Source: Nemertoderma westbladi
Lineage: Eukaryota > Animalia > Xenacoelomorpha
Length of the DNA stretch: 64,000 nucleotides
Assembly (NCBI GenBank): GCA_032718475.1
Contig: JAUCBJ010001037.1
Coordinates: 29,675 to 93,674 of the forward strand
Direction of reading: 5' to 3'
Shown: one piece after another, positions 13,201 through 43,200 of the stretch
Numbering within the stretch: position 1 is the first letter of the stretch
Layout of the letters: each line of letters opens with the position of its first letter
The notes under the pieces: generated by a model
The model's input: only the letters and a program-made list of their open reading frames with translations
Told to the model about the DNA's origin: nothing
The model's database searches: none
Program-made: the position numbers and the translations under genes

Positions 13201-16200
13201 AACAACCGACACAGTCGGTGAGTTACATTGGTTCTACAGACAAACGACACAGTCGGTGAGTTGCATTGGTTCGACAGACGACCGACACAGTCGGTGAGTT
13301 GCAGAGGTTCGACAGACAACCGCCACAGTCGGTGAGTTGCAGAGGTTCGACAGACAACCGACACAGTCGGTGAGTTACATTGGTTCGACAGACAACCGAC
13401 ACAGTCGTTGAATTACATTGGTTCGACAGACAACCGACACAGTCGTTGAATTACATTGGTTCGACAAACAACCGACACAGTAGGTGAGTTACATTGGTTC
13501 GACAGACAACCGACACAGTCGTTGAATTACATTGGTTCGACAAACAACCGACACAGTAGGTGAGTTACATTGGTTCGACAGACAGTAGTCCTCCAGGAGT
13601 AGTCAGTCTCATAATTATTATAGTCGCAGGTCAAAGGGAAGAAATCCGCACAAGATAAACGCCATACCGGGGCAGGATTCCGTGGGAAGAAGGTTGAAAG
13701 GAAAACCTCGAGACAAAATCGACGAAACGATAAAGATCGGGTCTCCGATTATAGGAGGTTAGTTAGTTAGTATGTTAGATCGGGTCTCCGATTATAGGAG
13801 GTTAGTTAGTTAGTATGTTAGATCGGGTCTCCGATTATAGGAGGTTAGTTAGTTAGTATGTTAGATCGGGTCTCCGATTATAGGAGGTTAGTTAGTTAGT
13901 ATGTTAGATCGGGTCTCCGATTATAGGAGGTTAGTTAGTATGTTAGATCGGGTCTCCGATTATAGGAGGTTAGTTAGTTAGTATGTTAGATCGGGTCTCC
14001 GATTATAGGGGGTTAGTTAGTATGTTAGATCGGGTCTCCGACTATAGGAGGTTAGTTAGTTAGTATGTTAGATCGGGTCTCCGATTATAGGAGGTTAGTT
14101 AGTTAGTATGTTAGATCGGGTCTCCGATTATAGGAGGTTAGTTATTTAGTATGTTAGATCGGGTCTCCGATTATAGGAGAAAGTTAGTTAGTATGTTAGA
14201 TCGGGTCTCCGATTATAGGAGGTTAGTTAGTTAGTATGTTAGATCGGGTCTCCGATTATAGGAAGTTAGTTAGTTAGTATGTTAGATCGGGTCTCCGATT
14301 ATAGGAGGTTAGTTATTTAGTATGTTAGATCGGGTCTCCGATTATAGGAGGTTAGTTAGTTAGTATGTTAGATCGGGTCTCCGATTATAGGAGGTTAGTT
14401 AGTTAGTATGTTAGATCGGGTCTCAGATTATAGGAGGTTAGTTAGTTAGTATGTTAGATCGGGTCTCCGATTATAGGGGGTTAGTTAGTATGTTAGATCG
14501 GGTCTCCGACTATAGGAGGTTAGTTAGTTAGTATGTTAGATCGGGTCTCCGATTATAGGAGGTTAGTTATTTAGTATGTTAGATCGGGTCTCCGATTATA
14601 GGAGAAAGTTAGTTAGTATGTTAGATCGGGTCTCCGATTATAGGAGGTTAGTTAGTTAGTATGTTAGATCGGGTCTCCGATTATAGGAGGTTAGTTAGTT
14701 AGTATGTTAGATCGGGTCTCCGATTATAGGAGGTTAGTTATTTAGTATGTTAGATCGGGTCTCCGATTATAGGAGGTTAGTTAGTTAGTATGTTAGATCG
14801 GGTCTCAGATTATAGGAGGTTAGTTAGTTAGTATGTTAGATCGGGTCTCCGATTATAGGGGGTTAGTTAGTATGTTAGATCGGGTCTCCGACTATAGGAG
14901 GTTAGTTAGTTAGTATGTTAGATCGGGTCTCCGATTATAGGAGGTTAGTTATTTAGTATGTTAGATCGGGTCTCCGATTATAGGAGAAAGTTAGTTAGTA
15001 TGTTAGATCGGGTCTCCGATTATAGGAGGTTAGTTAGTTAGTATGTTAGATCGGGTCTCCGATTATAGGGGGTTAGTTAGTATGTTAGATCGGGTCTCCG
15101 ATTATAGGGGGTTAGTTAGTATGTTAGATCGGGTCTCCGACTATAGGAGGTTAGTTAGTTAGTATGTTAGATCGGGTCTCCGATTATAGGAGGTTAGTTA
15201 TTTAGTATGTTAGATCGGGTCTCCGATTATAGGAGGTTAGTTAGTTAGTATGTTAGATCGGGTCTCCGATTATAGGAGGTTAGTTAGTTAGTATGTTAGA
15301 TCGGGTCTCCGATTATAGGAGGTTAGTTAGTTAGTATGTTAGATCGGGTCTCCGATTATAAGAGGTTAGTTAGTTAGTATGTTAGATCGGGTCTCCGACT
15401 ATAGGAGGTTAGTTAGTTAGTATGTAGATCGGGTCTCCGATTATAGGAGGTGAGGTAGTTAGTATGTTAGATCGGGTCTCCGATTATAGGAGGTTAGTTA
15501 GTTAGTATGTTAGATCGGGTCTCCGATTATAGGAGGTTAGTTAGTATGTGAGATCGGGTCTCCGATTATAGGAGGTTAGTTAGTTAGTATGTTAGATCGG
15601 GTCTCCGATTATAGGAGAAAGTTAGTTAGTATGTTAGATCGGGTCTCCTCTATAGGAGGTTAGTTAGTTAGTATGTTAGATCCGGTCTCAGACTATAGGA
15701 GGTTAGTTAGTTAGTATGTTAGATCGGGTCTCCGATTATAGGAGGTTAGTTAGTATGTTAGATCGGGTCTCCGATTATAAGAGGTTAGTTAGTTAGTATG
15801 TAGATCGGGTCTCCGATTATAGGAGGTTAGTTAGTTAGTATGTTAGATCGGGTCTCCGATTATAGGAGGTTAGTTAGTTAGTATGTTAGATCGGGTCTCC
15901 GATTATAGGAGGTTAGTTAGTTAGTATATTAGATCGGGTCTCCGATTATAGGAGGTTAGTTAGTTAGTATGTTAGATCGGGTCTCCGATTATAGGAGGTT
16001 GGTTAGTTAGTATGTTAGATCGGGTCTCCGATTATAGGAGGTTAGTTAGTATGTTAGATCGGGTCTCCGATTATAGGAGGTTAGTTAGTTAGTATGTTAG
16101 ATCGGGTCTCCGATTATAGGAGGTTAGTTAGTATGTTAGATCGGGTCTCCGATTATAGGAGGTTAGTTAGTTAGTATATTAGATCGGGTCTCCGATTATA

Positions 16201-19200
16201 GGAGGTTAGTTAGTATGTTAGATCGGGTCTCCGACTATAGGAGGTTAGTTAGTTAGTATGTTAGATCGGGTCTCCGATTATAGGAGGTTAGTTAGTTAGT
16301 ATGTTAGATCGGGTCTCCTCTATAGGAGGTTAGTTAGTTAGTATATTAGATCGGGTCTCCGATTATAGGAGGTTAGTTAGTTAGTGTGTTAGATCGGGTC
16401 TCCGATTATAGGAGGTTAGTTAGTATGTGAGATCGGGTCTCCGATTATAGGAGGTTAGTTAGTTAGTATGTTAGATCGGGTCTCCGATTATAGGAGAAAG
16501 TTAGTTAGTATGTTAGATCGGGTCTCCGATTATAGGAGGTTAGTTAGTATGTGAGATCAGGTCTCCGATTATAGGAGGTTAGTTAGTATGTGAGATCGGG
16601 TCTCCGATTATAGGAGGTTAGTTAGTTAGTATGTGAGATCGGGTCTCCGATTATAGGAGGTTAGTTAGTTAGTATGTTAGATCGGGTCTCCGATTATAGG
16701 AGGTTAGTTAGTATGTGAGATCGGGTCTCCTCTATAGGAGGTTTGTTAGTTAGTATGTTAGATCCGGTCTCAGACTATAGGAGGTTAGTTAGTTAGTATG
16801 TTAGATCGGGTCTCCGATTATAGGAGGTTAGTTAGTATGTTAGATCGGGTCTCCGACTATAGGAGGTTAGTTAGTTAGTATGTTAGATCGGGTCTCCGAT
16901 TATAGGAGGTTAGTTAGTTAGTATGTTAGATCGGGTCTCCGACTATAGGAGGTTAGTTAGTTAGTATGTTAGATCGGGTCTCCGATTATAGGAGGTTGGT
17001 TAGTTAGTATGTTAGATCGGGTCTCCTCTATAGGAGGTTAGTTAGTTAGTATGTTAGATCGGGTCTCCTCTATAGGAGGTTAGTTAGTTAGTATATTAGA
17101 TCGGGTCTCCGATTATAGGAGGTTAGTTAGTTAGTATGTTAGATCGGGTCTCCTCTATAGGAGGTTAGTTAGTTAGTATATTAGATCGGGTCTCCGATTA
17201 TAGGAGGTTAGTTAGTATGTTAGATCGGGTCTCCGACTATAGGAGGTTAGTTAGTTAGTATGTTGGATCGGGTCTCCTCTATAGGAGGTTAGTTAGTTAG
17301 TATATTAGATCGGGTCTCCGATTATAGGAGGTTAGTTAGTTAGTATGTTAGATCGGGTCTCCGATTATAGAAGGTTAGTTAGTAGTATGTTAGATCGGGT
17401 CTCCGATTATAGGAGGTTAGTTAGTATGTGAGATCGGGTCTCCGATTATAGGAGGTTAGTTAGTTAGTATGTTAGATCGGGTCTCCGATTATAGGAGGTT
17501 AGTTAGTATGTGAGATCGGGTCTCCGATTATAGGAGGTTAGTTAGTTAGTATGTTAGATCGGGTCTCCTCTATAGGAGGTTAGTTAGTTAGTATGTTAGA
17601 TCCGGTCTCAGACTATAGGAGGTTAGTTAGTTAGTATGTTAGATCAGGTCTCCGACTATAGGAGGTTAGTTAGTTAGTATGTTAGATCGGGTCTCCGATT
17701 ATAGGAGAAAGTTAGTTAGTATGTTAGATCGGGTCTCCTCTATAGGAGGTTAGTTAGTTAGTATGTTAGATCCGGTCTCAGACTATAGGAGGTTAGTTAG
17801 TTAGTATGTTAGATCGGGTCTCCGATTATAGGAGGTTAGTTAGTATGTTAGATCGGGTCTCCGATTATAGGAGGTTAGTTAGTTAGTATGTTAGATCGGG
17901 TCTCCGACTATAGGAGGTTAGTTAGTTAGTATGTTAGATCAGGTCTCCGACTATAGGAGGTTAGTTAGTTAGTATGTTAGATCGGGTCTCCGATTATAGG
18001 AGGTTAGTTAGTTAGTATGTTAGATCGGGTCTCCGATTATAGGAGGTTAGTTAGTTAGTATGTTAGATCGGGTCTCCGATTATAGGAGGTTAGTTAGTTA
18101 GTATGTTAGATCGGGTCTCCTCTATAGGAGGTTAGTTAGTTAGTATGTTAGATCGGGTCTCCGATTATAGGAGGTTAGTTAGTTAGTATGTTAGATCGGG
18201 ACTCCGATTATAGGAGGTTAGTTAGTATGTTAGATCGGGTCTCCGATTATAGGAGGTTAGTTAGTTAGTATGTTAGATAGGGTCTCCTCTATAGGAGGTT
18301 AGTTAGTTAGTATGTTAGATCGGGTCTCCGATTATAGGAGGTTAATTAGTATGTTAGATCGGGTCTCCGACTATAGGAGGTTAGTTAGTTAGTATGTTAG
18401 ATCGGGTCTCCGACTATAGGAGGTTAGTTAGTTAGTTAGTATGTTAGATCGGGTCTCCGACTATAGGAGGTTAGTTAGTTAGTATGTTAGATCGGGTCTC
18501 CGACTATAGGAGGTTAGTTAGTTAGTATGTTAGATCGGGTCTCCGATTATAGGAGGTTAGTTAGTATGTTAGATCGGGTCTCCGAATATAGGAGGTTAGT
18601 TAGTATGTTAGATCGGGTCTCCGATTATAGAAGGTTAGTTAGTTAGTATGTTAGATCGGGTCTCCGATTATAGGAGGTTGGTTAGTTAGTATTTTAGATC
18701 GGGTCTCCGACTATAGGAGGTTAGTTAGTTCTTAGTTAGTATGTTAGATCGGGTCTCCGATTATAGGAGGTTAGTTAGTTAGTATGTTAGATCGGGTCTC
18801 CGACTATAGGAGGTTAGTTAGTTAGTATGTTAGATCGGGTCTCCGATTATAGGAGGTTAGTTAGTTAGTATGTTAGATCGGGTCTCCGATTATAGGAGGT
18901 TAGTTAGTTAGTATGTTAGATCGGGTCTCCGATTATAGGAGGTTAGTTAGTATGTTAGATCGGGTCTCCGATTATAGGAGGTTAGTTAGTTAGTTAGTAT
19001 GTTAGATAGGGTCTCCTCTATAGGAGGTTAGTTAGTTAGTATGTTAGATCGGGTCTCCGATTATAGGAGGTTAGTTAGTTAGTATGTTAGATCGGGTCTC
19101 CGATTATAGGAGGTTAGTTAGTATGTTAGATCGGGTCTCCGACTATAGGAGGTTAGTTAGTTAGTATGTTAGATCGGGTCTCCGACTATAGGAGGTTAGT

Positions 19201-22200
19201 TAGTTAGTATGTTAGATCGGGTCTCCGACTATAGGAGGTTAGTTAGTTAGTATGTTAGATCGGGTCTCCGACTATAGGAGGTTAGTTAGTTAGTATGTTA
19301 GATCAGGTCTCCGATTATAGGAGGTTAGTTATTTAGTATGTTAGATCGGGTCTCCGATTATAGGAGGTTAGTTAGTTAGTATGTTAGATCGGGTCTCCGA
19401 TTATAGGAGGTTAGTTAGTTAGTATGTTAGATCGGGTCTCCTCTATAGGAGGTTAGTTAGTTAGTATGTTAGATCGGGTCTCCGATTATAGGAGGTTAGT
19501 TAGTTAGTATGTTAGATCGGGACTCCGATTATAGGAGGTTAGTTAGTATGTTAGATCGGGTCTCCGATTATAGGAGGTTAGTTAGTTAGTATGTTAGATA
19601 GGGTCTCCTCTATAGGAGGTTAGTTAGTTAGTATGTTAGATCGGGTCTCCGATTATAGGAGGTTAATTAGTATGTTAGATCGGGTCTCCGACTATAGGAG
19701 GTTAGTTAGTTAGTATGTTAGATCGGGTCTCCGACTATAGGAGGTTAGTTAGTTAGTTAGTATGTTAGATCGGGTCTCCGACTATAGGAGGTTAGTTAGT
19801 TAGTATGTTAGATCGGGTCTCCGACTATAGGAGGTTAGTTAGTTAGTATGTTAGATCGGGTCTCCGATTATAGGAGGTTAGTTAGTATGTTAGATCGGGT
19901 CTCCGAATATAGGAGGTTAGTTAGTATGTTAGATCGGGTCTCCGATTATAGAAGGTTAGTTAGTTAGTATGTTAGATCGGGTCTCCGATTATAGGAGGTT
20001 GGTTAGTTAGTATTTTAGATCGGGTCTCCGACTATAGGAGGTTAGTTAGTTCTTAGTTAGTATGTTAGATCGGGTCTCCGATTATAGGAGGTTAGTTAGT
20101 TAGTATGTTAGATCGGGTCTCCGACTATAGGAGGTTAGTTAGTTAGTATGTTAGATCGGGTCTCCGATTATAGGAGGTTAGTTAGTTAGTATGTTAGATC
20201 GGGTCTCCGATTATAGGAGGTTAGTTAGTTAGTATGTTAGATCGGGTCTCCGATTATAGGAGGTTAGTTAGTATGTTAGATCGGGTCTCCGATTATAGGA
20301 GGTTAGTTAGTTAGTATGTTAGATAGGGTCTCCTCTATAGGAGGTTAGTTAGTTAGTATGTTAGATCGGGTCTCCGATTATAGGAGGTTAGTTAGTTAGT
20401 ATGTTAGATCGGGTCTCCGATTATAGGAGGTTAGTTAGTATGTTAGATCGGGTCTCCGACTATAGGAGGTTAGTTAGTTAGTATGTTAGATCGGGTCTCC
20501 GACTATAGGAGGTTAGTTAGTTAGTATGTTAGATCGGGTCTCCGACTATAGGAGGTTAGTTAGTTAGTATGTTAGATCGGGTCTCCGACTATAGGAGGTT
20601 AGTTAGTTAGTATGTTAGATCAGGTCTCCGATTATAGGAGGTTAGTTATTTAGTATGTTAGATCGGGTCTCCGATTATAGGAGGTTAGTTAGTTAGTATG
20701 TTAGATCGGGTCTCCGATTATAGGAGGTTAGTTAGTTAGTATGTTAGATCGGGTCTCCGATTATAGGAGGTTAGTTAGTTAGTATGTTAGATCGGGTCTC
20801 CGATTATAGGAGGTTAGTTAGTTAGTATGTTAGATCGGGTCTCCGATTATAGGAGGTTAGTTAGTATGTTAGATCGGGTCTCCGATTATAGGAGGTTAGT
20901 TAGTTAGTATATTAGATCGGGTCTCCGATTATAGGAGGTTAGTTAGTATGTTAGATCGGGTCTCCGACTATAGGAGGTTAGTTAGTTAGTATGTTAGATC
21001 GGGTCTCCGATTATAGGAGGTTAGTTAGTTAGTATGTTAGATCGGGTCTCCTCTATAGGAGGTTAGTTAGTTAGTATATTAGATCGGGTCTCCGATTATA
21101 GGAGGTTAGTTAGTTAGTGTGTTAGATCGGGTCTCCGATTATAGGAGGTTAGTTAGTATGTGAGATCGGGTCTCCGATTATAGGAGGTTAGTTAGTTAGT
21201 ATGTTAGATCGGGTCTCCGATTATAGGAGAAAGTTAGTTAGTATGTTAGATCGGGTCTCCGATTATAGGAGGTTAGTTAGTATGTGAGATCGGGTCTCCG
21301 ATTATAGGAGGTTAGTTAGTATGTGAGATCGGGTCTCCGATTATAGGAGGTTAGTTAGTTAGTATGTGAGATCGGGTCTCCGATTATAGGAGGTTAGTTA
21401 GTTAGTATGTTAGATCGGGTCTCCGATTATAGGAGGTTAGTTAGTATGTGAGATCGGGTCTCCGATTATAGGAGGTTAGTTAGTTAGTATGTTAGATCGG
21501 GTCTCCGATTATAGGAGAAAGTTAGTTAGTATGTTAGATCGGGTCTCCTCTATAGGAGGTTAGTTAGTTAGTATGTTAGATCCGGTCTCAGACTATAGGA
21601 GGTTAGTTAGTTAGTATGTTAGATCGGGTCTCCGATTATAGGAGGTTAGTTAGTTAGTGTGTTAGATCGGGTCTCCGACTATAGGAGGTTAATTAGTTAG
21701 TATGTTAGATCGGGTCTCCGACTATAGGAGGTTAGTTAGTTAGTATGTTAGATCGGGTCTCCGATTATAGGAGGTTGGTTAGTTAGTATGTTAGATCGGG
21801 TCTCCGATTATAGGAGGTTGGTTAGTTAGTATGTTAGATCGGGTCTCCTCTATAGGAGGTTAGTTAGTTAGTATGTTAGATCGGGTCTCCTCTATAGGAG
21901 GTTAGTTAGTTAGTATATTAGATCGGGTCTCCGATTATAGGAGGTTAGTTAGTATGTTAGATCGGGTCTCCGACTATAGGAGGTTAGTTAGTTAGTATGT
22001 TAGATCGGGTCTCCTCTATAGGAGGTTAGTTAGTTAGTATATTAGATCGGGTCTCCGATTATAGGAGGTTAGTTAGTTAGTATGTTAGATCGGGTCTCCG
22101 ATTATAGAAGGTTAGTTAGTAGTATGTTAGATCGGGTCTCCGATTATAGGAGGTTAGTTAGTATGTGAGATCGGGTCTCCGATTATAGGAGGTTAGTTAG

Positions 22201-25200
22201 TTAGTATGTTAGATCGGGTCTCCGATTATAGGAGGTTAGTTAGTATGTGAGATCGGGTCTCCGATTATAGGAGGTTAGTTAGTTAGTATGTTAGATCGGG
22301 TCTCCTCTATAGGAGGTTAGTTAGTTAGTATGTTAGATCCGGTCTCAGACTATAGGAGGTTAGTTAGTTAGTATGTTAGATCAGGTCTCCGACTATAGGA
22401 GGTTAGTTAGTTAGTATGTTAGATCGGGTCTCCGATTATAGGAGAAAGTTAGTTAGTATGTTAGATCGGGTCTCCTCTATAGGAGGTTAGTTAGTTAGTA
22501 TGTTAGATCCGGTCTCAGACTATAGGAGGTTAGTTAGTTAGTATGTTAGATCGGGTCTCCGATTATAGGAGGTTAGTTAGTATGTTAGATCGGGTCTCCG
22601 ATTATAGGAGGTTAGTTAGTTAGTATGTTAGATCGGGTCTCCGACTATAGGAGGTTAGTTAGTTAGTATGTTAGATCAGGTCTCCGACTATAGGAGGTTA
22701 GTTAGTTAGTATGTTAGATCGGGTCTCCGATTATAGGAGGTTAGTTAGTTAGTATGTTAGATCGGGTCTCCGATTATAGGAGGTTAGTTAGTTAGTATGT
22801 TAGATCGGGTCTCCGATTATAGGAGGTTAGTTAGTTAGTATGTTAGATCGGGTCTCCTCTATAGGAGGTTAGTTAGTTAGTATGTTAGATCGGGTCTCCG
22901 ATTATAGGAGGTTAGTTAGTTAGTATGTTAGATCGGGACTCCGATTATAGGAGGTTAGTTAGTATGTTAGATCGGGTCTCCGATTATAGGAGGTTAGTTA
23001 GTTAGTATGTTAGATAGGGTCTCCTCTATAGGAGGTTAGTTAGTTAGTATGTTAGATCGGGTCTCCGATTATAGGAGGTTAGTTAGTATGTTAGATCGGG
23101 TCTCCGACTATAGGAGGTTAGTTAGTTAGTATGTTAGATCGGGTCTCCGACTATAGGAGGTTAGTTAGTTAGTATGTTAGATCGGGTCTCCGACTATAGG
23201 AGGTTAGTTAGTTAGTATGTTAGATCGGGTCTCAGACTATAGGAGGTTAGTTAGTTAGTATGTTAGATCGGGTCTCCGATTATAGGAGGTTAGTTAGTAT
23301 GTTAGATCGGGTCTCCGAATATAGGAGGTTAGTTAGTATGTTAGATCGGGTCTCCGATTATAGAAGGTTAGTTAGTTAGTATGTTAGATCGGGTCTCCGT
23401 TTATAGGAGGTTGGTTAGTTAGTATGTTAGATCGGGTCTCCGACTATAGGAGGTTAGTTAGTTCTTAGTTAGTATGTTAGATCGGGTCTCCGATTATAGG
23501 AGGTTAGTTAGTTAGTATGTTAGATCGGGTCTCCGACTATAGGAGGTTAGTTAGTTAGTATGTTAGATCGGGTCTCCGATTATAGGAGGTTAGTTAGTTA
23601 GTATGTTAGATCGGGTCTCCGATTATAGGAGGTTAGTTAGTTAGTATGTTAGATCGGGTCTCCGATTATAGGAGGTTAGTTAGTATGTTAGATCGGGTCT
23701 CCGATTATAGGAGGTTAGTTAGTTAGTATGTTAGATAGGGTCTCCTCTATAGGAGGTTAGTTAGTTAGTATGTTAGATCGGGTCTCCGATTATAGGAGGT
23801 TAGTTAGTTAGTATGTTAGATCGGGTCTCCGATTATAGGAGGTTAGTTAGTATGTTAGATCGGGTCTCCGACTATAGGAGGTTAATTAGTTAGTATGTTA
23901 GATCGGGTCTCCGACTATAGGAGGTTAGTTAGTTAGTATGTTAGATCGGGTCTCCGACTATAGGAGGTTAGTTAGTTAGTATGTTAGATCGGGTCTCCGA
24001 CTATAGGAGGTTAGTTAGTTAGTATGTTAGATCAGGTCTCCGACTATAGGAGGTTAGTTAGTTAGTTAGTATGTTAGATCGGGTCTCCGATTATAGGAGG
24101 TTAGTTAGTTAGTATGTTAGATCGGGTCTCCGATTATAGGAGGTTAGTTAGTTAGTATGTTAGATCGGGTCTCCGATTATAGGAGGTTAGTTAGTTAGTA
24201 TGTTAGATCGGGTCTCCGACTATAGGAGGTTAGTTAGTTAGTATGTTAGATCGGGTCTCCGATTATAGGAGGTTAGTTAGTTAGTATGTTAGATCGGGTT
24301 TCCGATTATAGGAGGTTAGTTAGTTAGTATGTTAGATCGGGTCTCCGATTATAGGAGGTTAGTTAGTTAGTATGTTAGATCGGGTCTCCGATTATAGGAG
24401 GTTAGTTAGTCAGTATGTTAGATCGGGTCTCCGATTATAGGAGGTTAGTTAGTTAGTATGTTAGATCGGGTCTCCGATTATAGGAGGTTAGTTAGTTAGT
24501 ATGTTAGATCGGGTCTCCGACTATAGGAGGTTAGTTAGTTAGTATGTTAGATCGGGTCTCCTCTATAGGAGGTTAGTTAGTTAGTTAGTGCTAAGAGAGA
24601 ATAGTTATATAATAAAATCAGCTTTTAGCGACTATCAGTGCATAATACAGCCTGCAACTTATCCCGTGAATGAAATCCGTGCAGGCAGGCCATCAGGTGG
24701 ATTATGTTATATTTTTCGAAATAAATTATCTAAATACATTTCTAGAATAAATGTGAAGAATACGCGTTTACAAGCAATACGTTTACATTTACCAAATGAT
24801 AAACCATTGGTTATTATCAATTCTTATTTTCCGGTTGACTCGCGTGATAATAATATCAGCGACGATTTACTTACGACAATAAACGATATTAAAGATATTA
24901 TTTTATCAGTTAATCAGTGCAATATTCTGCTCACAGGGGATTTTAATGCTGACTTCTGCCGCACTACGATGCACTGTAGTTTAATTAATCAAATGATACA
25001 AGAATTTCAATTCGATCGCCTTTGGGATTCTTACCCAGTTGACTATACATATACATGTTTTAGAGAGAATTCAGCATTTCATTCAACGTTGGATCATTTT
25101 TTCAGTAATTCACAATTTTGTGAAAATATTTTTGATTCAGGTGTTATTCATACTGGTGTCAATTTGTCATTTCATTCCCCAATTTTTCTTAAGTTTAAAG

Positions 25201-28200
25201 TAAATGTTTCAAATGTGCAATGCGATAGCAATGATAATGATAATGGTAGTAATATAGGTGAAGGTAATGTAAAATATAAACGTTCCACTAATGATCAGCA
25301 ACGTGAATTTATTAACCAATTAACTATCAGATTGAATTCATTAGCAGAACCGCTGCCTATGTGTACTCAGTGTAATAATATTTTTTGTAATGTTCCAGAA
25401 CATTTGTTATCTACTGAGAAATATGCCTTAGATATATTGGAAGCTATTGACCAGTGTAGCAGTAATATTTTACATCGTAGTAATGGAAGTAGGGGATCCC
25501 CCTTTAATCATCCTATTATCCCCGGGTGGTCTGAACGGGTGAAACCGTTCAGAGATGATGCTATGTTTTGGCATTCCTTGTGGGTCTCGGCGGGTTGCCC
25601 TAATGTATCACAAAATAGCCACTTATATCATATGCGAAGGGTCTCTCGCGCTCAGTATAAATATGCTGTTCGCCGGGTGAAACGCTCAGCTGATAATGTG
25701 CGAAGGGATAAATTAATTGAGGCCTGCTTGTTGAATAATACTGACATCTTTAAGGAAATAAGGAATCTCCGTTTCTCATCGAATAATGTTAGTTCATCGA
25801 TCGATGGTTGTACAGACCCGCAGTCTATCGCCGATCGATTTGCGGGAATCTATTCATCTTTGTATAATCAGCCATACAATTCAGATTTAGAAGCATTGAA
25901 GGCACTAATTGATGCCAAGTTGGTAAATTGTACTCTGGACGATGTTCCTCGGGTTTCTCCGGATTTAGTTGCTGAGGGTCTCCACAGACTAAAAAGTTCT
26001 AAAACAGATGTGACTTTTGGCTTTGATTCTGACTGTCTAATCCATGGTCCTCCTGAACTTTGTTTTCATCTCAGTAATCTATTTAATTCCTTTTTGACTC
26101 ACGGATTCGTTCCGCAATTTCTTTTGAATTGTGTTATCATTCCATTGATCAAGGATAAGTTGGGCGATGATACAGTATCCGGTAATTATAGGGCCATCGC
26201 TTTGTCGTCTCTCCTGATTAAATTGTTTGAATGGGTGATGCTACTCGCACAGGCTGATTGTTTAAAATTAGATGAGTTACAGTTTGGGTTTCAACGGGGA
26301 TCTAGTACCACTCAGTGTACTTGGGCTGCAACTGAGGTAATTAGTTTCTATTCCAGAAATGCAACTCCAGTGTTTGGCTGTTTGCTTGATCTTTCTAAAG
26401 CATTTGATATGGTGGAATGGTGCAAGCTGTTCCTTGAGCTCTTAAAGAAGGGGTTTTCTCCGTTTTACATCCGGTCTCTGTTATTTATCTACAATAATCA
26501 ATCTTGTGTAGTGCGATGGAATAATACGCATTCTGAGTCTTTTACATCGTCCAATGGGGTACGCCAAGGGTCTGTTGCCTCGCCAATCTTATTCTGTATC
26601 TTACTTGATAAGCTGTTTAGGAAATTAAGAAATTCCAAAGTAGGTTGCTTCGTGGGGTCTGTATATTTTGGGGCGGTTGGTTATGCCGATGACCTATTTT
26701 TGCTATGTCCGTCCATCGTAGGCCTTCAGCATATGGTTAAATTGTGCGAAGAGTTTGCACCGGAAAACAAGTTAATATTCAGCACGAATCCGAATCCGGA
26801 CAAGTCCAAGTCAAAGTGTATAGCTTTCGGGCGGGTCTGGGTTAAGCCTTTAGCGACAATTAAGTTGAACGGTTCGCCTCTTCCATGGGTTAAGGAGGCG
26901 CTGCATCTCGGTAACCTTCTTGACTTTAAAAACTCAATGGAATCTGATATCGTGCGTAAACGAGGGCAGTTTATAGGCAAATTGAATGCCTTAAGGCAGG
27001 AACTATATTTTTCGGACCCGTTTGTGCTTTGCAATGTACAACGTAGTTATTGCACTAGTTTCTACGGTAGTAACCTGTGGAACCTTCTTTCGCCAACATG
27101 TATAAGAATTTTTAGCACCTGGAATGTAAATGTTAGAATGATTTTTGGATTACCATTTAATTCTCATCGATATATTGTTGAAAACCTAGTGCAGTTTAAA
27201 CACCCGTGTATTATGCTTTACTCTCGCTTCGTTTCATTTTGTTTATCATTACGTAGGTCTAACAAAATGTGCATTCGTTTTCTTGCTAATATATGTTTAG
27301 TTGATTGTCGTACCCGGTCTGGGAGAAATTTACGAGAAATAGGAAACATGTGTAACATATTTAATCTTGAAATGCTGACATCTCGTGCGGTATCTAATCT
27401 TACTTATGTACCGTTACTGAACGCAGATAAGTGGCGAGTTAATTTTTGTAGGGAAATTATTTGGTGCCTAAACAACGGAGGTATTGTAGATGGCTTTACC
27501 CGCCAGGAATTGAGTAATATTTTAAATAGTGTATCCTCATCATAATTAATTACCTTCTTAGATCTGCAGTACTTAGACATATCATATTATTTTATAATAG
27601 TGCTTGTATTATTAACCTATTGTGCTTTGTGTACCCATCTGTATATTTGGTGTACGAAATTAAATTAAATTAAAAATTAAATTATGTTAGATCGGGTCTC
27701 CGATTATAGGAGGTTAGTTAGTTAGTATGTTAGATCGGGTCTCCGATTATAAGAGGTTAGTTAGTTAGTATGTTAGATCGGGTCTCCGATTATAGGAGGT
27801 TAGTTAGTTAGTATGTTAGATCGGGTCTCCTCTATAGGAGGTTAGTTAGTTAGTTAGTATGTTAGATCGGGTCTCCGATTATAGGAGGTTAGTTAGTTAG
27901 TATGTTAGATCGGGTCTCCGATTATAGGAGGTTAGTTAGTTAGTATGTTAGATCGGGTCTCCGATTATAGGAGGTTAGTTAGTTAGTATGTTAGATCGGG
28001 TCTCCGACTATAGGAGGTTAGTTAGTTAGTTAGTTAGTATGTTAGATCGGGTCTCCGATTATAGGAGGTTAGTTAGTTAGTATGTTAGATCGGGTTTCCG
28101 ATTATAGGAGGTTAGTTAGTTAGTATGTTAGATCGGGTCTCCGATTATAGGAGGTTAGTTAGTTAGTATGTTAGATCGGGTCTCCGATTATAGGAGGTTA

Positions 28201-31200: not shown

Positions 31201-34200
31201 GTATGTTAGATCGGGTCTCCGATTATAGGAGGTTAGTTAGTTAGTATGTTAGATCGGGTTTCCGATTATAGGAGGTTAGTTAGTTAGTATGTTAGATCGG
31301 GTCTCCGATTATAGGAGGTTAGTTAGTTAGTATGTTAGATCGGGTCTCCGATTATAGGAGGTTAGTTAGTCAGTATGTTAGATCGGGTCTCCGATTATAG
31401 GAGGTTAGTTAGTTAGTATGTTAGATCGGGTCTCCGATTATAGGAGGTTAGTTAGTTAGTATGTTAGATCGGGTCTCCGACTATAGGAGGTTAGTTAGTT
31501 AGTATGTTAGATCGGGTCTCCGATTATAGGAGGTTAGTTAGTTAGTATGTTAGATCGGGTCTCCGATTATAAGAGGTTAGTTAGTTAGTATGTTAGATCG
31601 GGTCTCCGATTATAGGAGGTTAGTTAGTTAGTATGTTAGATCGGGTCTCCTCTATAGGAGGTTAGTTAGTTAGTTAGTATGTTAGATCGGGTCTCCGATT
31701 ATAGGAGGTTAGTTAGTTAGTATGTTAGATCGGGTCTCCGATTATAGGAGGTTAGTTAGTTAGTATGTTAGATCGGGTCTCCGATTATAGGAGGTTAGTT
31801 AGTTAGTATGTTAGATCGGGTCTCCGACTATAGGAGGTTAGTTAGTTAGTTAGTTAGTATGTTAGATCGGGTCTCCGATTATAGGAGGTTAGTTAGTTAG
31901 TATGTTAGATCGGGTTTCCGATTATAGGAGGTTAGTTAGTTAGTATGTTAGATCGGGTCTCCGATTATAGGAGGTTAGTTAGTTAGTATGTTAGATCGGG
32001 TCTCCGATTATAGGAGGTTAGTTAGTTAGTATGTTAGATCGGGTCTCCGATTATATGAGGTTAGTTAGTTAGTATGTTAGATCGGGTCTCCGATTATAGG
32101 AGGTTAGTTAGTTAGTATGTTAGATCGGGTCTCCTCTATAGGAGGTTAGTTAGTTAGTATGTTAGATCGGGTCTCCGATTATAGGAGGTTAGTTAGTTAG
32201 TATGTTAGATCGGGTCTCCGATTATAGGAGGTTAGTTAGTTAGTATGTTAGATCGGGTCTCCGACTATAGGAGGTTAGTTAGTTAGTATGTTAGATCGGG
32301 TCTCCGACTATAGGAGGTTAGTTAGTTAGTATGTTAGATCGGGTCTCCGACTATAGGAGGTTAGTTAGTTAGTATGTTAGATCAGGTCTCCGACTATAGG
32401 AGGTTAGTTAGTTAGTATGTTAGATCGGGTCTCCGATTATAGGAGGTTAGTTAGTTAGTATGTTAGATCGGGTCTCCTCTATAGGAGGTTAGTTAGTTAG
32501 TTAGTATGTTAGATCGGGTCTCCGATTATAGGAGGTAGTTAGTTAGTATGTTAGATCGGGTCTCCGATTATAGGAGGTTAGTTAGTTAGTATGTTAGATC
32601 GGGTCTCCGATTATAGGAGGTTAGTTAGTTAGTATGTTAGATCGGGTCTCCGACTATAGGAGGTTAATTAGTTAGTATGTTAGATCGGGTCTCCGATTAT
32701 AGGAGGTTAGTTAGTTAGTATGTTAGATCGGGTTTCCGATTATAGGAGGTTAGTTAGTTAGTATGTTAGATCGGGTCTCCGATTATAGGAGGTTAGTTAG
32801 TTAGTATGTTAGATCGGGTCTCCGATTATAGGAGGTTAGTTAGTTAGTATGTTAGATCGGGTCTCCGATTATAGGAGGTTAGTTAGTTAGTATGTTAGAT
32901 CGGGTCTCCGATTATAGGAGGTTAGTTAGTTAGTATGTTAGATCGGGTCTCCGACTATAGGAGGTTAGTTAGTTAGTATGTTAGATCGGGTCTCCTCTAT
33001 AGGAGGTTAGTTAGTTAGTATGTTAGATCGGGTCTCCGATTATAGGAGGTTAGTTAGTTAGTATGTTAGATCGGGTCTCCGATTATAGGAGGTTAGTTAG
33101 TTAGTATGTTAGATCGGGTCTCCGATTATAGGAGGTTAGTTAGTTAGTATGTTAGATCGGGTCTCCTCTATAGGAGGTTAGTTAGTTAGTTAGTATGTTA
33201 GATCGGGTCTCCGATTATAGGAGGTTAGTTAGTTAGTATGTTAGATCGGGTCTCCGATTATAGGAGGTTAGTTAGTTAGTATGTTAGATCGGGTCTCCGA
33301 TTATAGGAGGTTAGTTAGTTAGTATGTTAGATCGGGTCTCCGACTATAGGAGGTTAGTTAGTTAGTTAGTATGTTAGATCGGGTCTCCGATTATAGGAGG
33401 TTAGTTAGTTAGTATGTTAGATCGGGTTTCCGATTATAGGAGGTTAGTTAGTTAGTATGTTAGATCGGGTCTCCGATTATAGGAGGTTAGTTAGTTAGTA
33501 TGTTAGATCGGGTCTCCGATTATAGGAGGTTAGTTAGTTAGTATGTTAGATCGGGTCTCCGATTATAGGAGGTTAGTTAGTTAGTATGTTAGATCGGGTC
33601 TCCGATTATAGGAGGTTAGTTAGTTAGTATGTTAGATCGGGTCTCCTCTATAGGAGGTTAGTTAGTTAGTATGTTAGATCGGGTCTCCGATTATAGGAGG
33701 TTAGTTAGTTAGTATGTTAGATCGGGTCTCCGATTATAGGAGGTTAGTTAGTTAGTATGTTAGATCGGGTCTCCGACTATAGGAGGTTAGTTAGTTAGTA
33801 TGTTAGATCGGGTCTCCGACTATAGGAGGTTAGTTAGTTAGTATGTTAGATCGGGTCTCCGACTATAGGAGGTTAGTTAGTTAGTATGTTAGATCAGGTC
33901 TCCGACTATAGGAGGTTAGTTAGTTAGTATGTTAGATCGGGTCTCCGATTATAGGAGGTTAGTTAGTTAGTATGTTAGATCGGGTCTCCTCTATAGGAGG
34001 TTAGTTAGTTAGTTAGTATGTTAGATCGGGTCTCCGATTATAGGAGGTAGTTAGTTAGTATGTTAGATCGGGTCTCCGATTATAGGAGGTTAGTTAGTTA
34101 GTATGTTAGATCGGGTCTCCGATTATAGGAGGTTAGTTAGTTAGTATGTTAGATCGGGTCTCCGACTATAGGAGGTTAATTAGTTAGTATGTTAGATCGG

Positions 34201-37200
34201 GTCTCCGATTATAGGAGGTTAGTTAGTTAGTATGTTAGATCGGGTCTCCGATTATAGGAGGTTAGTTAGTTAGTATGTTAGATCGGGTCTCCGATTATAG
34301 GAGGTTAGTTAGTTAGTATGTTAGATCGGGTCTCCGATTATAGGAGGTTAGTTAGTTAGTATGTTAGATCGGGTCTCCGATTATAGGAGGTTAGTTAGTT
34401 AGTATGTTAGATCGGGTCTCCGATTATAGGAGGTTAGTTAGTTAGTATGTTAGATCGGGTCTCCGACTATAGGAGGTTAGTTAGTTAGTATGTTAGATCG
34501 GGTCTCCTCTATAGGAGGTTAGTTAGTTAGTATGTTAGATCGGGTCTCCGATTATAGGAGGTTAGTTAGTTAGTATGTTAGATCGGGTCTCCGATTATAG
34601 GAGGTTAGTTAGTTAGTATGTTAGATCGGGTCTCCGATTATAGGAGGTTAGTTAGTTAGTATGTTAGATCGGGTCTCCTCTATAGGAGGTTAGTTAGTTA
34701 GTTAGTATGTTAGATCGGGTCTCCGATTATAGGAGGTTAGTTAGTTAGTATGTTAGATCGGGTCTCCGATTATAGGAGGTTAGTTAGTTAGTATGTTAGA
34801 TCGGGTCTCCGATTATAGGAGGTTAGTTAGTTAGTATGTTAGATCGGGTCTCCGACTATAGGAGGTTAGTTAGTTAGTTAGTATGTTAGATCGGGTCTCC
34901 GATTATAGGAGGTTAGTTAGTTAGTATGTTAGATCGGGTTTCCGATTATAGGAGGTTAGTTAGTTAGTATGTTAGATCGGGTCTCCGATTATAGGAGGTT
35001 AGTTAGTTAGTATGTTAGATCGGGTCTCCGATTATAGGAGGTTAGTTAGTTAGTATGTTAGATCGGGTCTCCGATTATAGGAGGTTAGTTAGTTAGTATG
35101 TTAGATCGGGTCTCCGATTATAGGAGGTTAGTTAGTTAGTATGTTAGATCGGGTCTCCGACTATAGGAGGTTAGTTAGTTAGTATGTTAGATCGGGTCTC
35201 CTCTATAGGAGGTTAGTTAGTTAGTATGTTAGATCGGGTCTCCGATTATAGGAGGTTAGTTAGTTAGTATGTTAGATCGGGTCTCCGATTATAGGAGGTT
35301 AGTTAGTTAGTATGTTAGATCGGGTCTCCGATTATAGAAGGTTAGTTAGTTAGTATGTTAGATCAGGTCTCCGATTATAGGAGATTAGTTAGTTAGTATG
35401 TTAGATCGGGTCTCCGATTATAGGAGGTTAGTTAGTATGTGAGATCGGGTCTCCGACTATAGGAGGTTAGTTAGTTAGTATGTTAGATCGGGTCTTCGAC
35501 TATAGAAGGTTAGTTAGTATGTGAGATCGGGTCTCCGATTATAGGAGGTTAGTTAGTTAGTGTGTTAGATCGGGTCTCCGACTATAGGAGGTTAGTTAGT
35601 TAGTATGTTAGATCGGGTCTCCGATTATAGGAGGTTAGTTAGTTAGTATGTTAGATCGGGTCTCCGATTATAGGAGGTTAGTTAGTTAGTATGTTAGATC
35701 GGGTCTTCGACTATAGAAGGTTAGTTAGTATGTGAGATCGGGTCTCCGATTATAGGAGGTTAGTTAGTTAGTATGTTAGATCGGGTCTCCGATTATAGGA
35801 GGTTAGTTAGTTAGTATGTTAGATCGGGTCTCCGACTATAGGAGGTTAGTTAGTTAGTATGTTAGATCGGGTCTCCTCTATAGGAGGTTAGTTAGTTAGT
35901 ATGTTAGATCGGGTCTCCGATTATAGGAGGTTAGTTAGTTAGTATGTTAGATCGGGTCTCCGATTATAGGAGGTTAGTTAGTTAGTATGTTAGATCGGGT
36001 CTCCGATTATAGGAGGTTAGTTAGTTAGTATGTTAGATCGGGTCTCCGACTATAGGAGGTTAGTTAGTTAGTATGTTAGATCGGGTCTCCTCTATAGGAG
36101 GTTAGTTAGTTAGTATGTTAGATCGGGTCTCCTCTATAGGAGGTTAGTTAGTTAGTATGTTAGATCAGGTCTCCGATTATAGGAGGTTAGTTAGTTAGTA
36201 TGTTAGATCGGGTCTCCGATTATAGGAGGTTAGTTAGTATGTGAGATCGGGTCTCCGATTATAGGAGGTTAGTTAGTATGTTAGATCGGGTCTCCGATTA
36301 TAGGAGGTTAGTTAGTATGTTAGATCGGGTCTCCGATTATAGGAGGTTAGTTAGTATGTTAGATCGGGTCTCCGATTATAGGATGTTAGTTAGTATGTTA
36401 GATCGGGTCTCCGACTATAGAAGGTTAGTTAGTTAGTATGTTAGATCGGGTCTCCGATTATAGGAGGTTAGTTAGTTAGTATGTTAGATCGGGTCTCAGA
36501 TTATAGGAGGTTAGTTAGTTAGTATGTTAGATCGGGTCTCCGATTATAGGAGGTTAGTTAGTTAGTATGTTAGATCGGGTCTCCGATTATAGGAGGTTAG
36601 TTAGTTAGTATGTTAGATCGGGTCTCCGACTATAGGAGGTTAGTTAGTTAGTATGTTAGATCGGGTCTCCGATTATAGGAGGTTAGTTAGTTAGTATGTT
36701 AGATCGGGTCTTCGATTATAGAAGGTTAGTTAGTTAGTATGTTAGATCAGGTCTCCGATTATAGGAGGTTAGTTAGTTAGTATGTTAGATCGGGTCTCCG
36801 ATTATAGGAGGTTAGTTAGTTAGTATGTTAGATCGGATCTCCGATTATAGGAGGTTAGTTAGTTAGTATGTTAGATCGGGTCTCCGATTATAGGAGGTTA
36901 GTTAGTTAGTTAGTATGTTAGATCGGGTCTCCGATTATAGGAGGTTAGTTAGTTAGTATGTTAGATCGGGTCTCCGATTATAGGAGGTTAGTTAGTTAGT
37001 ATGTTAGATCGGGTCTTCGACTATAGGAGGTTAGTTAGTTAGTATGTTAGATCGGGTCTCCGACTATAGGAGGTTAGTTAGTTAGTATGTTAGATCGGGT
37101 CTCCGACTATAGGAGGTTAGTTAGTTAGTATGTTAGATCGGGTCTCCGATTATAGGAGGTTAGTTAGTTAGTATGTTAGATCGGGTCTCCGATTATAGGA

Positions 37201-40200
37201 GGTTAGTTAGTTAGTATGTTAGATCGGGTCTCCGATTATAGGAGGTTAGTTAGTTAGTATGTTAGATCGGGTCTTCGACTATAGGAGGTTAGTTAGTTAG
37301 TATGTTAGATCGGGTCTCCGATTATAGGAGGTTAGTTAGTTAGTATGTTAGATCGGGTCTCCGACTATAGGAGGTTAGTTAGTTAGTATGTTAGATCGGG
37401 TCTCCGATTATAGGAGGTTAGTTAGTTAGTATGTTAGATCGGGTCTCCTCTATAGGAGGTTAGTTAGTTAGTATGTTAGATCGGGTCTCCTCTATAGGAG
37501 GTTAGTTAGTTAGTATGTTAGATCAGGTCTCCGATTATAGGAGGTTAGTTAGTTAGTATGTTAGATCGGGTCTCCGATTATAGGAGGTTAGTTAGTATGT
37601 GAGATCGGGTCTCCGATTATAGGAGGTTAGTTAGTATGTTAGATCGGGTCTCCGATTATAGGAGGTTAGTTAGTATGTTAGATCGGATCTCCGATTATAG
37701 GAGGTTAGTTAGTTAGTATGTTAGATCGGGTCTCCGATTATAGGAGGTTAGTTAGTTAGTTAGTATGTTAGATCGGGTCTCCGATTATAGGAGGTTAGTT
37801 AGTTAGTATGTTAGATCGGGTCTCCGATTATAGGAGGTTAGTTAGTTAGTATGTTAGATCGGGTCTTCGACTATAGGAGGTTAGTTAGTTAGTATGTTAG
37901 ATCGGGTCTCCGACTATAGGAGGTTAGTTAGTTAGTATGTTAGATCGGGTCTCCGACTATAGGAGGTTAGTTAGTTAGTATGTTAGATCGGGTCTCCGAT
38001 TATAGGAGGTTAGTTAGTTAGTATGTTAGATCGGGTCTCCGATTATAGGAGGTTAGTTAGTTAGTATGTTAGATCGGGTCTCCGATTATAGGAGGTTAGT
38101 TAGTTAGTATGTTAGATCGGGTCTTCGACTATAGGAGGTTAGTTAGTTAGTATGTTAGATCGGGTCTCCGATTATAGGAGGTTAGTTAGTTAGTATGTTA
38201 GATCGGGTCTCCGACTATAGGAGGTTAGTTAGTTAGTATGTTAGATCGGGTCTCCGATTATAGGAGGTTAGTTAGTTAGTATGTTAGATCGGGTCTCCTC
38301 TATAGGAGGTTAGTTAGTTAGTATGTTAGATCGGGTCTCCTCTATAGGAGGTTAGTTAGTTAGTATGTTAGATCAGGTCTCCGATTATAGGAGGTTAGTT
38401 AGTTAGTATGTTAGATCGGGTCTCCGATTATAGGAGGTTAGTTAGTATGTGAGATCGGGTCTCCGATTATAGGAGGTTAGTTAGTATGTTAGATCGGGTC
38501 TCCGATTATAGGAGGTTAGTTAGTATGTTAGATCGGGTATCCGATTATAGGAGGTTAGTTAGTATGTTAGATCGGGTCTCCGATTATAGGAGGTTAGTTA
38601 GTATGTTAGATCGGGTCTCCGACTATAGAAGGTTAGTTAGTTAGTATGTTAGATCAGGTCTCCGATTATAGGAGGTTAGTTAGTTAGTATGTTAGATCGG
38701 GTCTCCGACTATAGGAGGTTAGTTAGTTAGTATGTTAGATCGGGTCTCCGATTATAGGAGGTTAGTTAGTTAGTATGTTAGATCGGGTCTTCGATTATAG
38801 AAGGTTAGTTAGTTAGTATGTTAGATCAGGTCTCCGATTATAGGAGGTTAGTTAGTTAGTATGTTAGATCGGGTCTCCGATTATAGGAGGTTAGTTAGTT
38901 AGTTAGTATGTTAGATCGGGTCTCCGATTATAGGAGGTTAGTTAGTTAGTATGTTAGATCGGGTCTCCGATTATAGGAGGTTAGTTAGTTAGTTAGTATG
39001 TTAGATCGGGTCTCCGATTATAGGAGGTTAGTTAGTTAGTATGTTAGATCGGGTCTCCGATTATAGGAGGTTAGTTAGTTAGTATGTTAGATCGGGTCTT
39101 CGACTATAGGAGGTTAGTTAGTTAGTATGTTAGATCGGGTCTCCGACTATAGGAGGTTAGTTAGTTAGTATGTTAGATCGGGTCTCCGACTATAGGAGGT
39201 TAGTTAATTAGTATGTTAGATCGGGTCTCCGATTATAGGAGGTTAGTTAGTTAGTATGTTAGATCGGGTCTCCGATTATAGGAGGTTAGTTAGTTAGTAT
39301 GTTAGATCGGGTCTCCGACTATAGGAGGTTAGTTAGTTAGTATGTTAGATCAGGTCTCCGATTATAGGAGGTTAGTTAGTTAGTATGTTAGATCGGGTCT
39401 CCGACTATAGGAGGTTAGTTAGTTAGTATGTTAGATCGGGTCTCCGATTATAGGAGGTTAGTTAGTTAGTATGTTAGATCGGGTCTTCGATTATAGAAGG
39501 TTAGTTAGTTAGTATGTTAGATCAGGTCTCCGATTATAGGAGGTTAGTTAGTTAGTATGTTAGATCGGGTCTCCGATTATAGGAGGTTAGTTAGTTAGTT
39601 AGTATGTTAGATCGGGTCTCCGATTATAGGAGGTTAGTTAGTTAGTATGTTAGATCGGGTCTCCGATTATAGGAGGTTAGTTAGTTAGTTAGTATGTTAG
39701 ATCGGGTCTCCGATTATAGGAGGTTAGTTAGTTAGTATGTTAGATCGGGTCTCCGATTATAGGAGGTTAGTTAGTTAGTATGTTAGATCGGGTCTCCGAC
39801 TATAGGAGGTTAGTTAGTTAGTATGTTAGATCGGGTCTCCGACTATAGGAGGTTAGTTAGTTAGTATGTTAGATCGGGTCTCCGACTATAGGAGGTTAGT
39901 TAGTTAGTATGTTAGATCGGGTCTCCGATTATAGGAGGTTAGTTAGTTAGTATGTTAGATCGGGTCTCCGATTATAGGAGGTTAGTTAGTTAGTATGTTA
40001 GATCGGGTCTCCGATTATAGGAGATTAGTTAGTTAGTATGTTAGATCGGGTCTTCGACTATAGGAGGTTAGTTAGTTAGTATGTTAGATCGGGTCTCCGA
40101 TTATAGGAGGTTAGTTAGTTAGTATGTTAGATCGGGTCTCCGACTATAGGAGGTTAGTTAGTTAGTATGTTAGATCGGGTCTCCGATTATAGGAGGTTAG

Positions 40201-43200
40201 TTAGTTAGTATGTTAGATCGGGTCTCCGATTATAGGAGGTTAGTTAGTTAGTATGTTAGATCGGGTCTCCGATTATAGGAGGTTAGTTAGTTAGTATGTT
40301 AGATCGGGTCTCCGACTATAGGAGGTTAGTTAGTTAGTATGTTAGATCAGGTCTCCGATTATAGGAGGTTAGTTAGTTAGTATGTTAGATCGGGTCTCCG
40401 ACTATAGGAGGTTAGTTAGTTAGTATGTTAGATCGGGTCTCCGATTATAGGAGGTTAGTTAGTTAGTATGTTAGATCGGGTCTCCGATTATAGGAGGTTA
40501 GTTAGTTAGTATGTTAGATCGGGTCTCCGATTATAGGAGGTTAGTTAGTTAGTATGTTAGATCGGGTCTCCGATTATAGGAGGTTGTTAGTTAGTTAGTA
40601 TGTTAGATCGGGTCTCCGATTATAGGAGGTTAGTTAGTTAGTATGTTAGATCGGGTCTCCGATTATAGGAGGTTAGTTAGTTAGTTAGTATGTTAGATCG
40701 GGTCTCCGATTATAGGAGGTTAGTTAGTTAGTATGTTAGATCGGGTCTCCGATTATAGGAGGTTAGTTAGTTAGTATGTTAGATCGGGTCTTCGACTATA
40801 GGAGGTTAGTTAGTTAGTATGTTAGATCGGGTCTCCGACTATAGGAGGTTAGTTAGTTAGTATGTTAGATCGGGTCTCCGACTATAGGAGGTTAGTTAAT
40901 TAGTATGTTAGATCGGGTCTCCGATTATAGGAGGTTAGTTAGTTAGTATGTTAGATCGGGTCTCCGATTATAGGAGGTTAGTTAGTTAGTATGTTAGATC
41001 GGGTCTCCGATTATAGGAGATTAGTTAGTTAGTATGTTAGATCGGGTCTTCGACTATAGGAGGTTAGTTAGTTAGTATGTTAGATCGGGTCTCCGATTAT
41101 AGGAGGTTAGTTAGTTAGTATGTTAGATCGGGTCTCCGACTATAGGAGGTTAGTTAGTTAGTATGTTAGATCGGGTCTCCGATTATAGGAGGTTAGTTAG
41201 TTAGTATGTTAGATCGGGTCTCCGATTATAGGAGGTTAGTTAGTTAGTATGTTAGATCGGGTCTCCGATTATAGGAGGTTAGTTAGTTAGTATGTTAGAT
41301 CAGGTCTCCGATTATAGGAGGTTAGTTAGTTAGTATGTTAGATCGGGTCTCCGATTATAGGAGGTTAGTTAGTTAGTATGTTAGATCGGGTCTCCGATTA
41401 TAGGAGGTTAGTTAGTTAGTATGTTAGATCGGGTCTCCGATTATAGGAGGTTAGTTAGTTAGTATGTTAGATCGGGTCTTCGACTATAGGAGGTTAGTTA
41501 GTTAGTATGTTAGATCGGGTCTCCGACTATAGGAGGTTAGTTAGTTAGTATGTTAGATCGGGTCTCCGACTATAGGAGGTTAGTTAGTTAGTATGTTAGT
41601 GTTAGATCGGGTCTCCGATTATAGGAGGTTAGTTAGTTAGTATGTTAGATCGGGTCTCCGATTATAGGAAGTTAGTTAGTTAGTATGTTAGATCGGGTCT
41701 CAGATTATAGGAGGTTAGTTAGTTAGTATGTTAGATCGGGTCTCCGATTATAGGAGGTTAGTTAGTTAGTATGTTAGATCGGGTCTCCGATTATAGGAGG
41801 TTAGTTAGTTAGTATGTTAGATCGGGTCTCCGATTATAGAAGGTTAGTTAGTAGTATGTTAGATCGGGTCTCCGATTATAGGAGGTTAGTTAGTTAGTAT
41901 GTTAGATCGGGTCTCCGACTATAGGAGGTTAGTTAGTTAGTATGTTAGATCGGGTATCCGACTATAGGAGGTTAGTTAGTTAGTTAGTATGTTAGATCGG
42001 GTCTCCGACTATAGGAGGTTAGTTAGTTAGTATGTTAGATCGGGTCTCCGACTATAGGAGGTTAGTTAGTTAGTATGTTAGATCGGGTCTCCGACTATAG
42101 GAGGTTAGTTAGTTAGTGTGTTAGATCGGGTCTCCGACTATAGGAGGTTAGTTAGTTAGTATGTTAGATCGGCTACTATTGTTGCTGAATTCTATTTATA
42201 ATCGCAGGCGGGAACGGAATGGCCGTTGGATGGAGACACATATTTGGCACTCCAAACGGTTCCACATGACTAAACAATGGGGGTTTAAACTTCCTTATAA
42301 ACCAACAGATAAAGGTATCCGCTCTATATATCGATCGTTATCCAACTACTCAGTTGCTATGGTAAGTCACTAATTCATTATCAGGGGAAGTGCAAAACTT
42401 GATGTAAAGTAACTGTAAAGTAACTCAAACTGTAAAGTAGCTGTAAAGTAGCTCTATGCTATAGGATATTCCTACCCTTTTGTTATCCATTTAAACGTAG
42501 AGAAAATGTTGGTAAATAACGCGAATAACGAAAATATTGGAATTATTTTACACCAAAGACCAAAATATTGGATACCACAGCTATGCAGTTTCTCTGCGGG
42601 ATGTTTCCGTTTCTGTGTGGTTGTCGCACAAAGTAGAACATTAATAATGATTTCAATATCACAATATCGTACTTTTTTTTCTCCGAATGTAATTTTTCGT
42701 GGAAGAGTTGAAGAGTTTCTTAATTGGAATTTAACTATATTTTTTACAGGATATGTCGTATTATAGAACGTTAGAGTTAACCGGAGCTCACAACGACATT
42801 GTCGATACGTTGAGTAGACTGACATCGTCGAGTGTTTGTCTGCCGGTCCACTCGCAGACATTCGTACAAGGCCAGCGTTACGGGAGGACAATCCTCTACA
42901 AGTCGGACTGCTACCCGGCCCAATGCATCGGCCCAATATCATTCCTATGGAAACCGTCGGAAAACAGCCAGTCACGTAAGTACCGGTAACTAGTCAGGTA
43001 GAACGTTGGGGTCATGGAATTAAACAATTACAACGTTGTAATTCTGGAACCTTTCGCTAGCTAGCGTTATTATTAGCTAGTTAATTATATTTATATGTAG
43101 TTTTGTACATTTTAATCCTTGTTGTATTACCTACATAAAGTAACATATATATTATGACATTTCTTCACTGAGCCATGTAAGGAAGTCAACTAGATAGTAA

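Follow-up and report, generated by a model that had tools for sequence, protein, structure and literature searches.

A 43-bp minisatellite that straddles the exon 5 donor fills a 28-kb intron of the POP1 gene in Nemertoderma westbladi

POP1 is an essential housekeeping gene. In the xenacoelomorph Nemertoderma westbladi its intron 5 is filled by a 43-bp minisatellite that straddles the donor site of exon 5. The gene lies in a stretch of 64,000 nucleotides (GenBank assembly GCA_032718475.1, contig JAUCBJ010001037.1, positions 29,675 to 93,674 of the forward strand), which is called the window here and to which all coordinates refer. The array exists, and the intron that holds it is transcribed and correctly spliced. 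It belongs to a known class of repeats, in which it stands out by its size, and does not in itself demonstrate a new mechanism. It probably grew in a nearly neutral manner and was tolerated since the donor furthest upstream prevails.

Intron 5 occupies positions 13758-42207 of the plus strand and is 28,450 nt long. Tandem Repeats Finder reports a 43-bp period from 13734 to 42172, and cutting at a unit anchor resulted in 594 units, about 25.3 kb in total. An insert separates the left arm of 257 units (13734..24589) from the right arm (27684..42172), which has 337 units and ends with a 7-nt partial copy, AGATCGG. Each unit consists of the final 24 nt of exon 5 and the initial 19 nt of intron 5. 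Exon 5 is 134 nt long (13624..13757) and contributes its final 24 nt (13734-13757) to unit 1, which therefore spans the exon-intron boundary (13734-13776); the RNA junction is at 13757 and the authentic donor, GTTAGT, is at 13758..13763. A unique intron tail of 35 nt (42173..42207) follows the array and carries the acceptor, which ends at 42207, immediately before exon 6 (42208..42361). The last array donor, at 42147, is 61 nt from this acceptor.

An earlier note on this DNA had described an amplified exon end plus donor, in about 600 copies that stop 35 nt before the acceptor. The present analysis agrees with all three points, and the start of the first unit does match an end of a POP1 exon. 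The unit had been credited with 23 exonic nucleotides, but the split is 24 exonic and 19 intronic nucleotides with the exon end at 13757. The giant, repeat-filled intron is confirmed, but not the length of 28.4 kb assigned to the array, which is about 25.3 kb with a 3.09-kb long interspersed element (LINE) inside. The note had overlooked this element, and had reported a single array where there are two.

The units of the array are young. The 592 whole units listed fall into 64 distinct variants; 232 of these units are identical to the exon copy, and the mean divergence among the 430 units of 43 nt is 1.4%. Blocks of 20-24 units recur within the array, indicating tandem turnover and homogenisation; recurring multi-unit blocks are the pattern expected of unequal exchange or slippage. 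The exact donor GAG/GTTAGT is present in 535 of the 594 units, AG/GTTAGT is found at 551 array positions, and 309 copies equal the real donor site across 30 nt without a mismatch. The authentic donor itself matches the U1 consensus at 7 of 9 positions. The 18-mer composed of the exon end and donor of intron 5 has 582 copies in that intron if up to three mismatches are permitted. The equivalent 18-mer of each other intron, searched for in its own intron, was found 20 times in intron 4 and not at all in any of the other 13 POP1 introns. The enrichment of donor copies in intron 5 is not due to chance. Eleven distinct substitutions fall in the nine donor positions of the unit and 23 in its other 34 positions. 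Thus the array donors are not eroded, and no targeted loss at the donor positions is clearly seen.

The second junction array is in intron 4 (12617..13584, plus strand). Its 38-bp unit is made of 31 exonic and 7 intronic nucleotides, the former being the last 31 nt of exon 4 (12451..12647), which encodes part of the POP1_N domain. The array has 25 donor positions, at 20 of which the GT is kept, and terminates in an 18-nt partial copy that matches the exon at 16 of 18 positions. Collapsing it leaves an intron of 64 nt. Since this architecture is the same as that of intron 5, exon 5 is flanked by two junction arrays. RNA folding, applied to four stretches in all, did not distinguish the first 43-bp donor by any structure (z 0.57, compared to -0.78 for the inner units). 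Among the 38-bp stretches, the inner one beat its shuffles (z -2.67) whereas the first did not (z 0.30).

The insert in the intron 5 array is a LINE in the sense orientation, apparently truncated at its 5' end, that extends approximately from 24590 to 27683 (3.09 kb) and ends in an AT-rich repeat tail. It contains an open frame of 986 codons (24585-27542) with a Pfam match to RVT_1 (E 2.7e-24) and weak endonuclease matches. The insertion site is inside one unit and there is no evident target duplication. The flanks of the LINE belong to a 23-unit block that recurs without it, the difference being a single additional unit where the LINE is inserted. The LINE therefore probably arrived after most of the array growth. 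The element has four AATAAA and five ATTAAA hexamers, with three of the ATTAAA motifs in the tail, and the array arms have none; it could thus provide an early cleavage site inside POP1.

Use of the first donor is evident from RNA. None of the eight sequencing runs listed is annotated as RNA, and X5 was uninformative, but run X4 (sample S3) behaves as RNA because it is spliced: a single contig of 8,067 nt, with a depth of 188, joins exons across GT..AG introns, introns 6 and 7 among them, and most intron bins are empty. The contig covers 13623-13758 and then continues with exon 6 sequence, which establishes the junction 13757^42208. It is the sole record (1 of 1) on 13575-13870, and the later array units in this interval have zero depth. 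The junction supports the claim of the earlier note that the first donor is functional, and the spliced contig answers its doubt over whether this copy of POP1 is transcribed. The upstream loose end of the contig matches letters that are specific to the exonic copy of the 38-bp unit. The first donor of intron 4 is therefore in use as well, and the start of exon 5 is at 13624. Two AG acceptors are present 6 nt apart before exon 5 (13618-13629), of which the RNA contig takes the upstream one.

Every later donor of intron 5 would bring an in-frame TAG (13768..13770) into the transcript, as had been noted earlier. RNA made in this way could be hidden by decay. It is conceivable, although unlikely, that the first donor is merely dominant and that a substantial share of transcripts use nearby later donors or skip an exon and are degraded, in which case the length of the array would tune or burden POP1 expression. 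The 309 perfect copies and the stop that follows all later donors are in keeping with such leakage. So is human ABCA7 with its 25-bp repeat, in which transcripts may retain one unit or skip an exon and long alleles are expressed less (PMC5954066). On the other side, there are no array-derived RNA contigs in X4 though all copies would contribute to a common set of words, a weak argument because contigs tend to drop rare transcript forms and are not a measure of minor splice forms. Furthermore, many copies are present in at least two samples, and their donors are not eroded.

The array could also be removed recursively. In each unit an AG directly precedes the GT, with TTATAG three bases earlier, and a splicing hop to either would regenerate the same donor. 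TTATAG ends 4 of the 15 acceptors of the gene, and a hop via AG/GT would leave no trace in the mRNA. Nevertheless, recursion is highly improbable here. Splicing at TTATAG would leave 3 extra nt, which the RNA contig does not have, and the AG before the GT is in a GAG context that lacks the AT-rich run of real acceptors. The 551 AG/GTTAGT points inside the intron are expected anyway of junction copies, and an intron of 28 kb is generally known to need no recursion. A broader proposal, speculative and with the odds well against it, is that the roughly 550 AG/GT points form a ladder of sites for recursive splicing or for the loading of U1. Such a ladder would have allowed a minute intron to expand to 28 kb, perhaps also protecting the transcript against premature termination within the sense LINE. 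Junction amplification would then license its own growth and be a path to gigantic introns in the housekeeping genes of this animal lineage.

The length of the array was assessed from read-word depth, for which the depth of a contig was divided by how often its words occur in the window; such depths are rough quantities and not copy numbers. In run X1 this ratio is 18.0-18.8 for 5 of the 11 contigs on the array, compared to a depth of 11.4-13.5 for single-copy contigs, so that X1 contains some 1.4-1.6 times as many copies as were assembled. The array variants occur in X1 in the same proportions as in the assembly. Expressed per single-copy depth, and again as contig depth, not copy number, these data imply 820-970 units in X1 and at least about 150 in X2 (sample S2). 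X1 may be the source sample of the assembly; two contigs of X2 in exon 8 carry 21 and 13 differences, respectively. Inflation of the array by the assembler, against which the earlier note had advised a check, is unlikely. Admittedly, no single read was seen to span the intron, and the flank of the LINE has one extra unit relative to the matching 23-unit block. However, the 64 unit variants are arranged in ordered blocks, the word depth of X1 is above the assembled count at a ratio that is constant across variants, and the second sample has its own 150 or so units at least. A short array inflated during assembly is scarcely credible in view of these data.

Both arrays collapse to introns of 61-64 nt, so the ancestral intron 5 was probably short. 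The earlier note had concluded that a normal intron of 61 nt remains on collapse. The distance is correct, but 'normal', or ancestral, is not borne out as a description of this size, the 13 POP1 introns without a junction array being 110-4,693 nt long. The note had also attributed the array to a duplication seeded by microhomology. The AGATCGG tail is compatible with such seeding, but it may also be a clipped last copy. The 18-nt partial copy at the end of the sister array is too long for chance homology and is better read as clipping. The microhomology proposal is unproven. A metagenome scan found three distant POP1 loci with 43-53% identity. In the two that include upstream sequence (L001 and L002) the reading frame runs through the position of intron 5, and thus neither has an intron there. 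Birth of intron 5 from an exon duplication was considered and rejected, as its 19-nt and 35-nt parts are, by eye, unlike the flanking exons.

The following sequence of events would account for the present structure. A small duplication across the exon-intron junction may have created the first repeat. Duplications of single units and of multi-unit blocks, probably by unequal exchange or slippage, would then have expanded it to the 594 young copies whose block structure is seen today. The LINE that is present in the array would have been inserted late. The spliceosome presumably commits to the first donor, beside a defined exon of 134 nt, and splices it to the only acceptor, 28 kb downstream; here the junction comes from one RNA contig and the first-come rule is borrowed from minigene experiments on human F7. 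A transcript spliced from a later donor would meet a stop codon 11 nt into the intron, and this RNA would likely be cleared by nonsense-mediated decay. With the first donor in use and a stop codon awaiting any slip, growth of the array would be tolerated.

Several points weigh against this account. Because contigs drop rare forms and decay hides later-donor RNA, exclusive use of the first donor is not established. The RNA is from another individual, as it has 14 letter differences from the window in exon 8; no DNA run is listed for its sample, S3, whose array may be of another length. The high-depth words are assigned to the POP1 locus by inference because coverage of the array edges is thin: the contig at the right edge contains only 30 array letters and no contig bridges the left edge. 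The unique part of exon 5 is covered by no DNA contig of X1, X2 or X3, a gap that proves nothing in itself. The number of distinct substitutions per base is nominally slightly higher at donor positions than elsewhere in the unit (1.2 versus 0.7). The presence of arrays in two adjacent introns hints at a local bias that neutral growth does not explain. Finally, the further donors used in human CBS and 6-16, together with the effects of the ABCA7 repeat, mean that neutrality is not guaranteed.

The architecture of the array and use of the first donor have both been published, and the novelty implied by the earlier note was overstated. In the 37-bp variable number tandem repeat (VNTR) of F7 intron 7, intervening sequence (IVS) 13 of CBS, IVS2 of 6-16, LAMIN B2 and PDGF intron 4, the first unit spans the boundary, the donor is reiterated and the most upstream one is used, as in POP1. 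According to PMC1557585, the most upstream site alone is used in F7, LAMIN B2 and PDGF, and additional donors are used in CBS and 6-16. The same paper reports that the F7 pseudo-sites are functional: only the most upstream site is used, but others become active when those upstream of them are mutated. The F7 group has 5-25 copies compared to 594 here, and the F7 unit has 4 exon bases compared to 24. A LINE inside the array and a pair of affected adjacent introns are particular to POP1. The amphioxus 'mirages' are likewise duplications of invertebrate exon-intron boundaries that keep their splice signals and evolve in concert; they leave splicing of Adh3 and globin genes undisturbed (PMC3087553). 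The globin example has 3-6 units, about a hundredfold fewer than the POP1 array (PMC3087553).

Human ABCA7 is the closest case in size. The unit of its 25-bp VNTR in intron 18 opens with the donor GT, and the longest allele reported is 10,678 bp, or about 427 repeats (PMC5954066, PMC13747324). As in POP1, the unit contains a donor and use of the second one results in a premature stop; long alleles have lower expression and more exon skipping (PMC5954066). The longest ABCA7 alleles are rare and linked to altered splicing and disease risk, whereas the POP1 array has no effect shown. The latter exceeds the longest of these alleles 2.4-fold in length and 1.4-fold in the number of units, and resides in an essential housekeeping gene. 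No larger junction array was found in the literature, which was covered mostly through non-subscription papers and without supplements, which could contain larger ones; PMC10078293 described none that comes closer. Tandem repeats also determine the size of the gigantic introns of Drosophila kl-3 and kl-5, which are of megabase scale and spermatocyte-specific (PMC6508621). At 28,450 nt the POP1 intron is far from that scale. The repeats of kl-3 and kl-5 are simple satellites and are not known to be splice junctions.

The number of donor copies in POP1 thus exceeds that of any case in the literature covered (594 compared to about 427). The gene is essential, and many copies are present in two samples or more. 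The array constitutes a natural stress test of the rule that the most upstream donor wins, which was derived from 5-9 copies in F7. The contrast is extreme: the last donor is 61 nt from the acceptor and the used donor is 28 kb away, with 309 sites identical over 30 nt. Furthermore, duplication of a junction alone can make one intron 59% of the coding span of its gene.

The POP1 gene model (10198..58789, plus strand) has 16 exons, 15 GT-AG introns and 2,549 codons. RNA shows joins 5-6, 6-7 and 7-8, and join 4-5 through the 30-letter loose end; the others are predictions based on reading frame and splice signals. The spliced RNA contig of 8,067 nt accommodates the 7,650-nt reading frame and untranslated regions. 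A Pfam scan of 10 pieces, 5 of which have no family, placed POP1_N on exons 4 and 6 and POPLD and POP1_C on the last exon. Exon 6, with its ETHIWH motif, aligns with residues 195-241 of human POP1 (E 5.6e-13). Two protein searches with POP1 found no homologue. The predicted protein of 2,549 residues is long compared to the human (1,024) and yeast (875) proteins. Within 47669-57451, exon 8 alone has 3,879 nt; it is present in the RNA contig and has no Pfam family. Later exons have low-complexity stretches and a 10-residue repeat (54731-55013). At position 50739, X1, X2 and X4 have T where the window has C, possibly an assembly error or a private allele.

An intronless XK-related reading frame (43820-45388, plus strand; Pfam E 3e-84) is nested in POP1 intron 7 on the same strand and has almost no depth in X4. 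A search with its protein gave 37 mammalian matches at 28-31% identity and no close relative. The same intron contains a very high-copy element (45245-47780), probably a mobile one, with a summed depth of up to 295,000 in X2. Upstream of POP1, a single reading frame encodes a TNF-family ligand (4189-5019, plus strand; Pfam E 6e-14), and LINE-like sequence at 1-1925 adjoins an array of 65 copies of a 27-bp unit (1926-3646, minus strand). GTGAGT is part of the minus-strand unit. The array comes after a donor-like stretch of similar sequence near 3670, where no exon is established. Further tandem arrays are found at 51572-52260, 52410-53011, 54017-54357, 56219-56726 and 59305-61524. Four of them are in POP1 introns and one is downstream of the gene. 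Two of the four intronic arrays begin 24 and 38 nt past an exon end, which they do not include. The region as a whole is rich in minisatellites.

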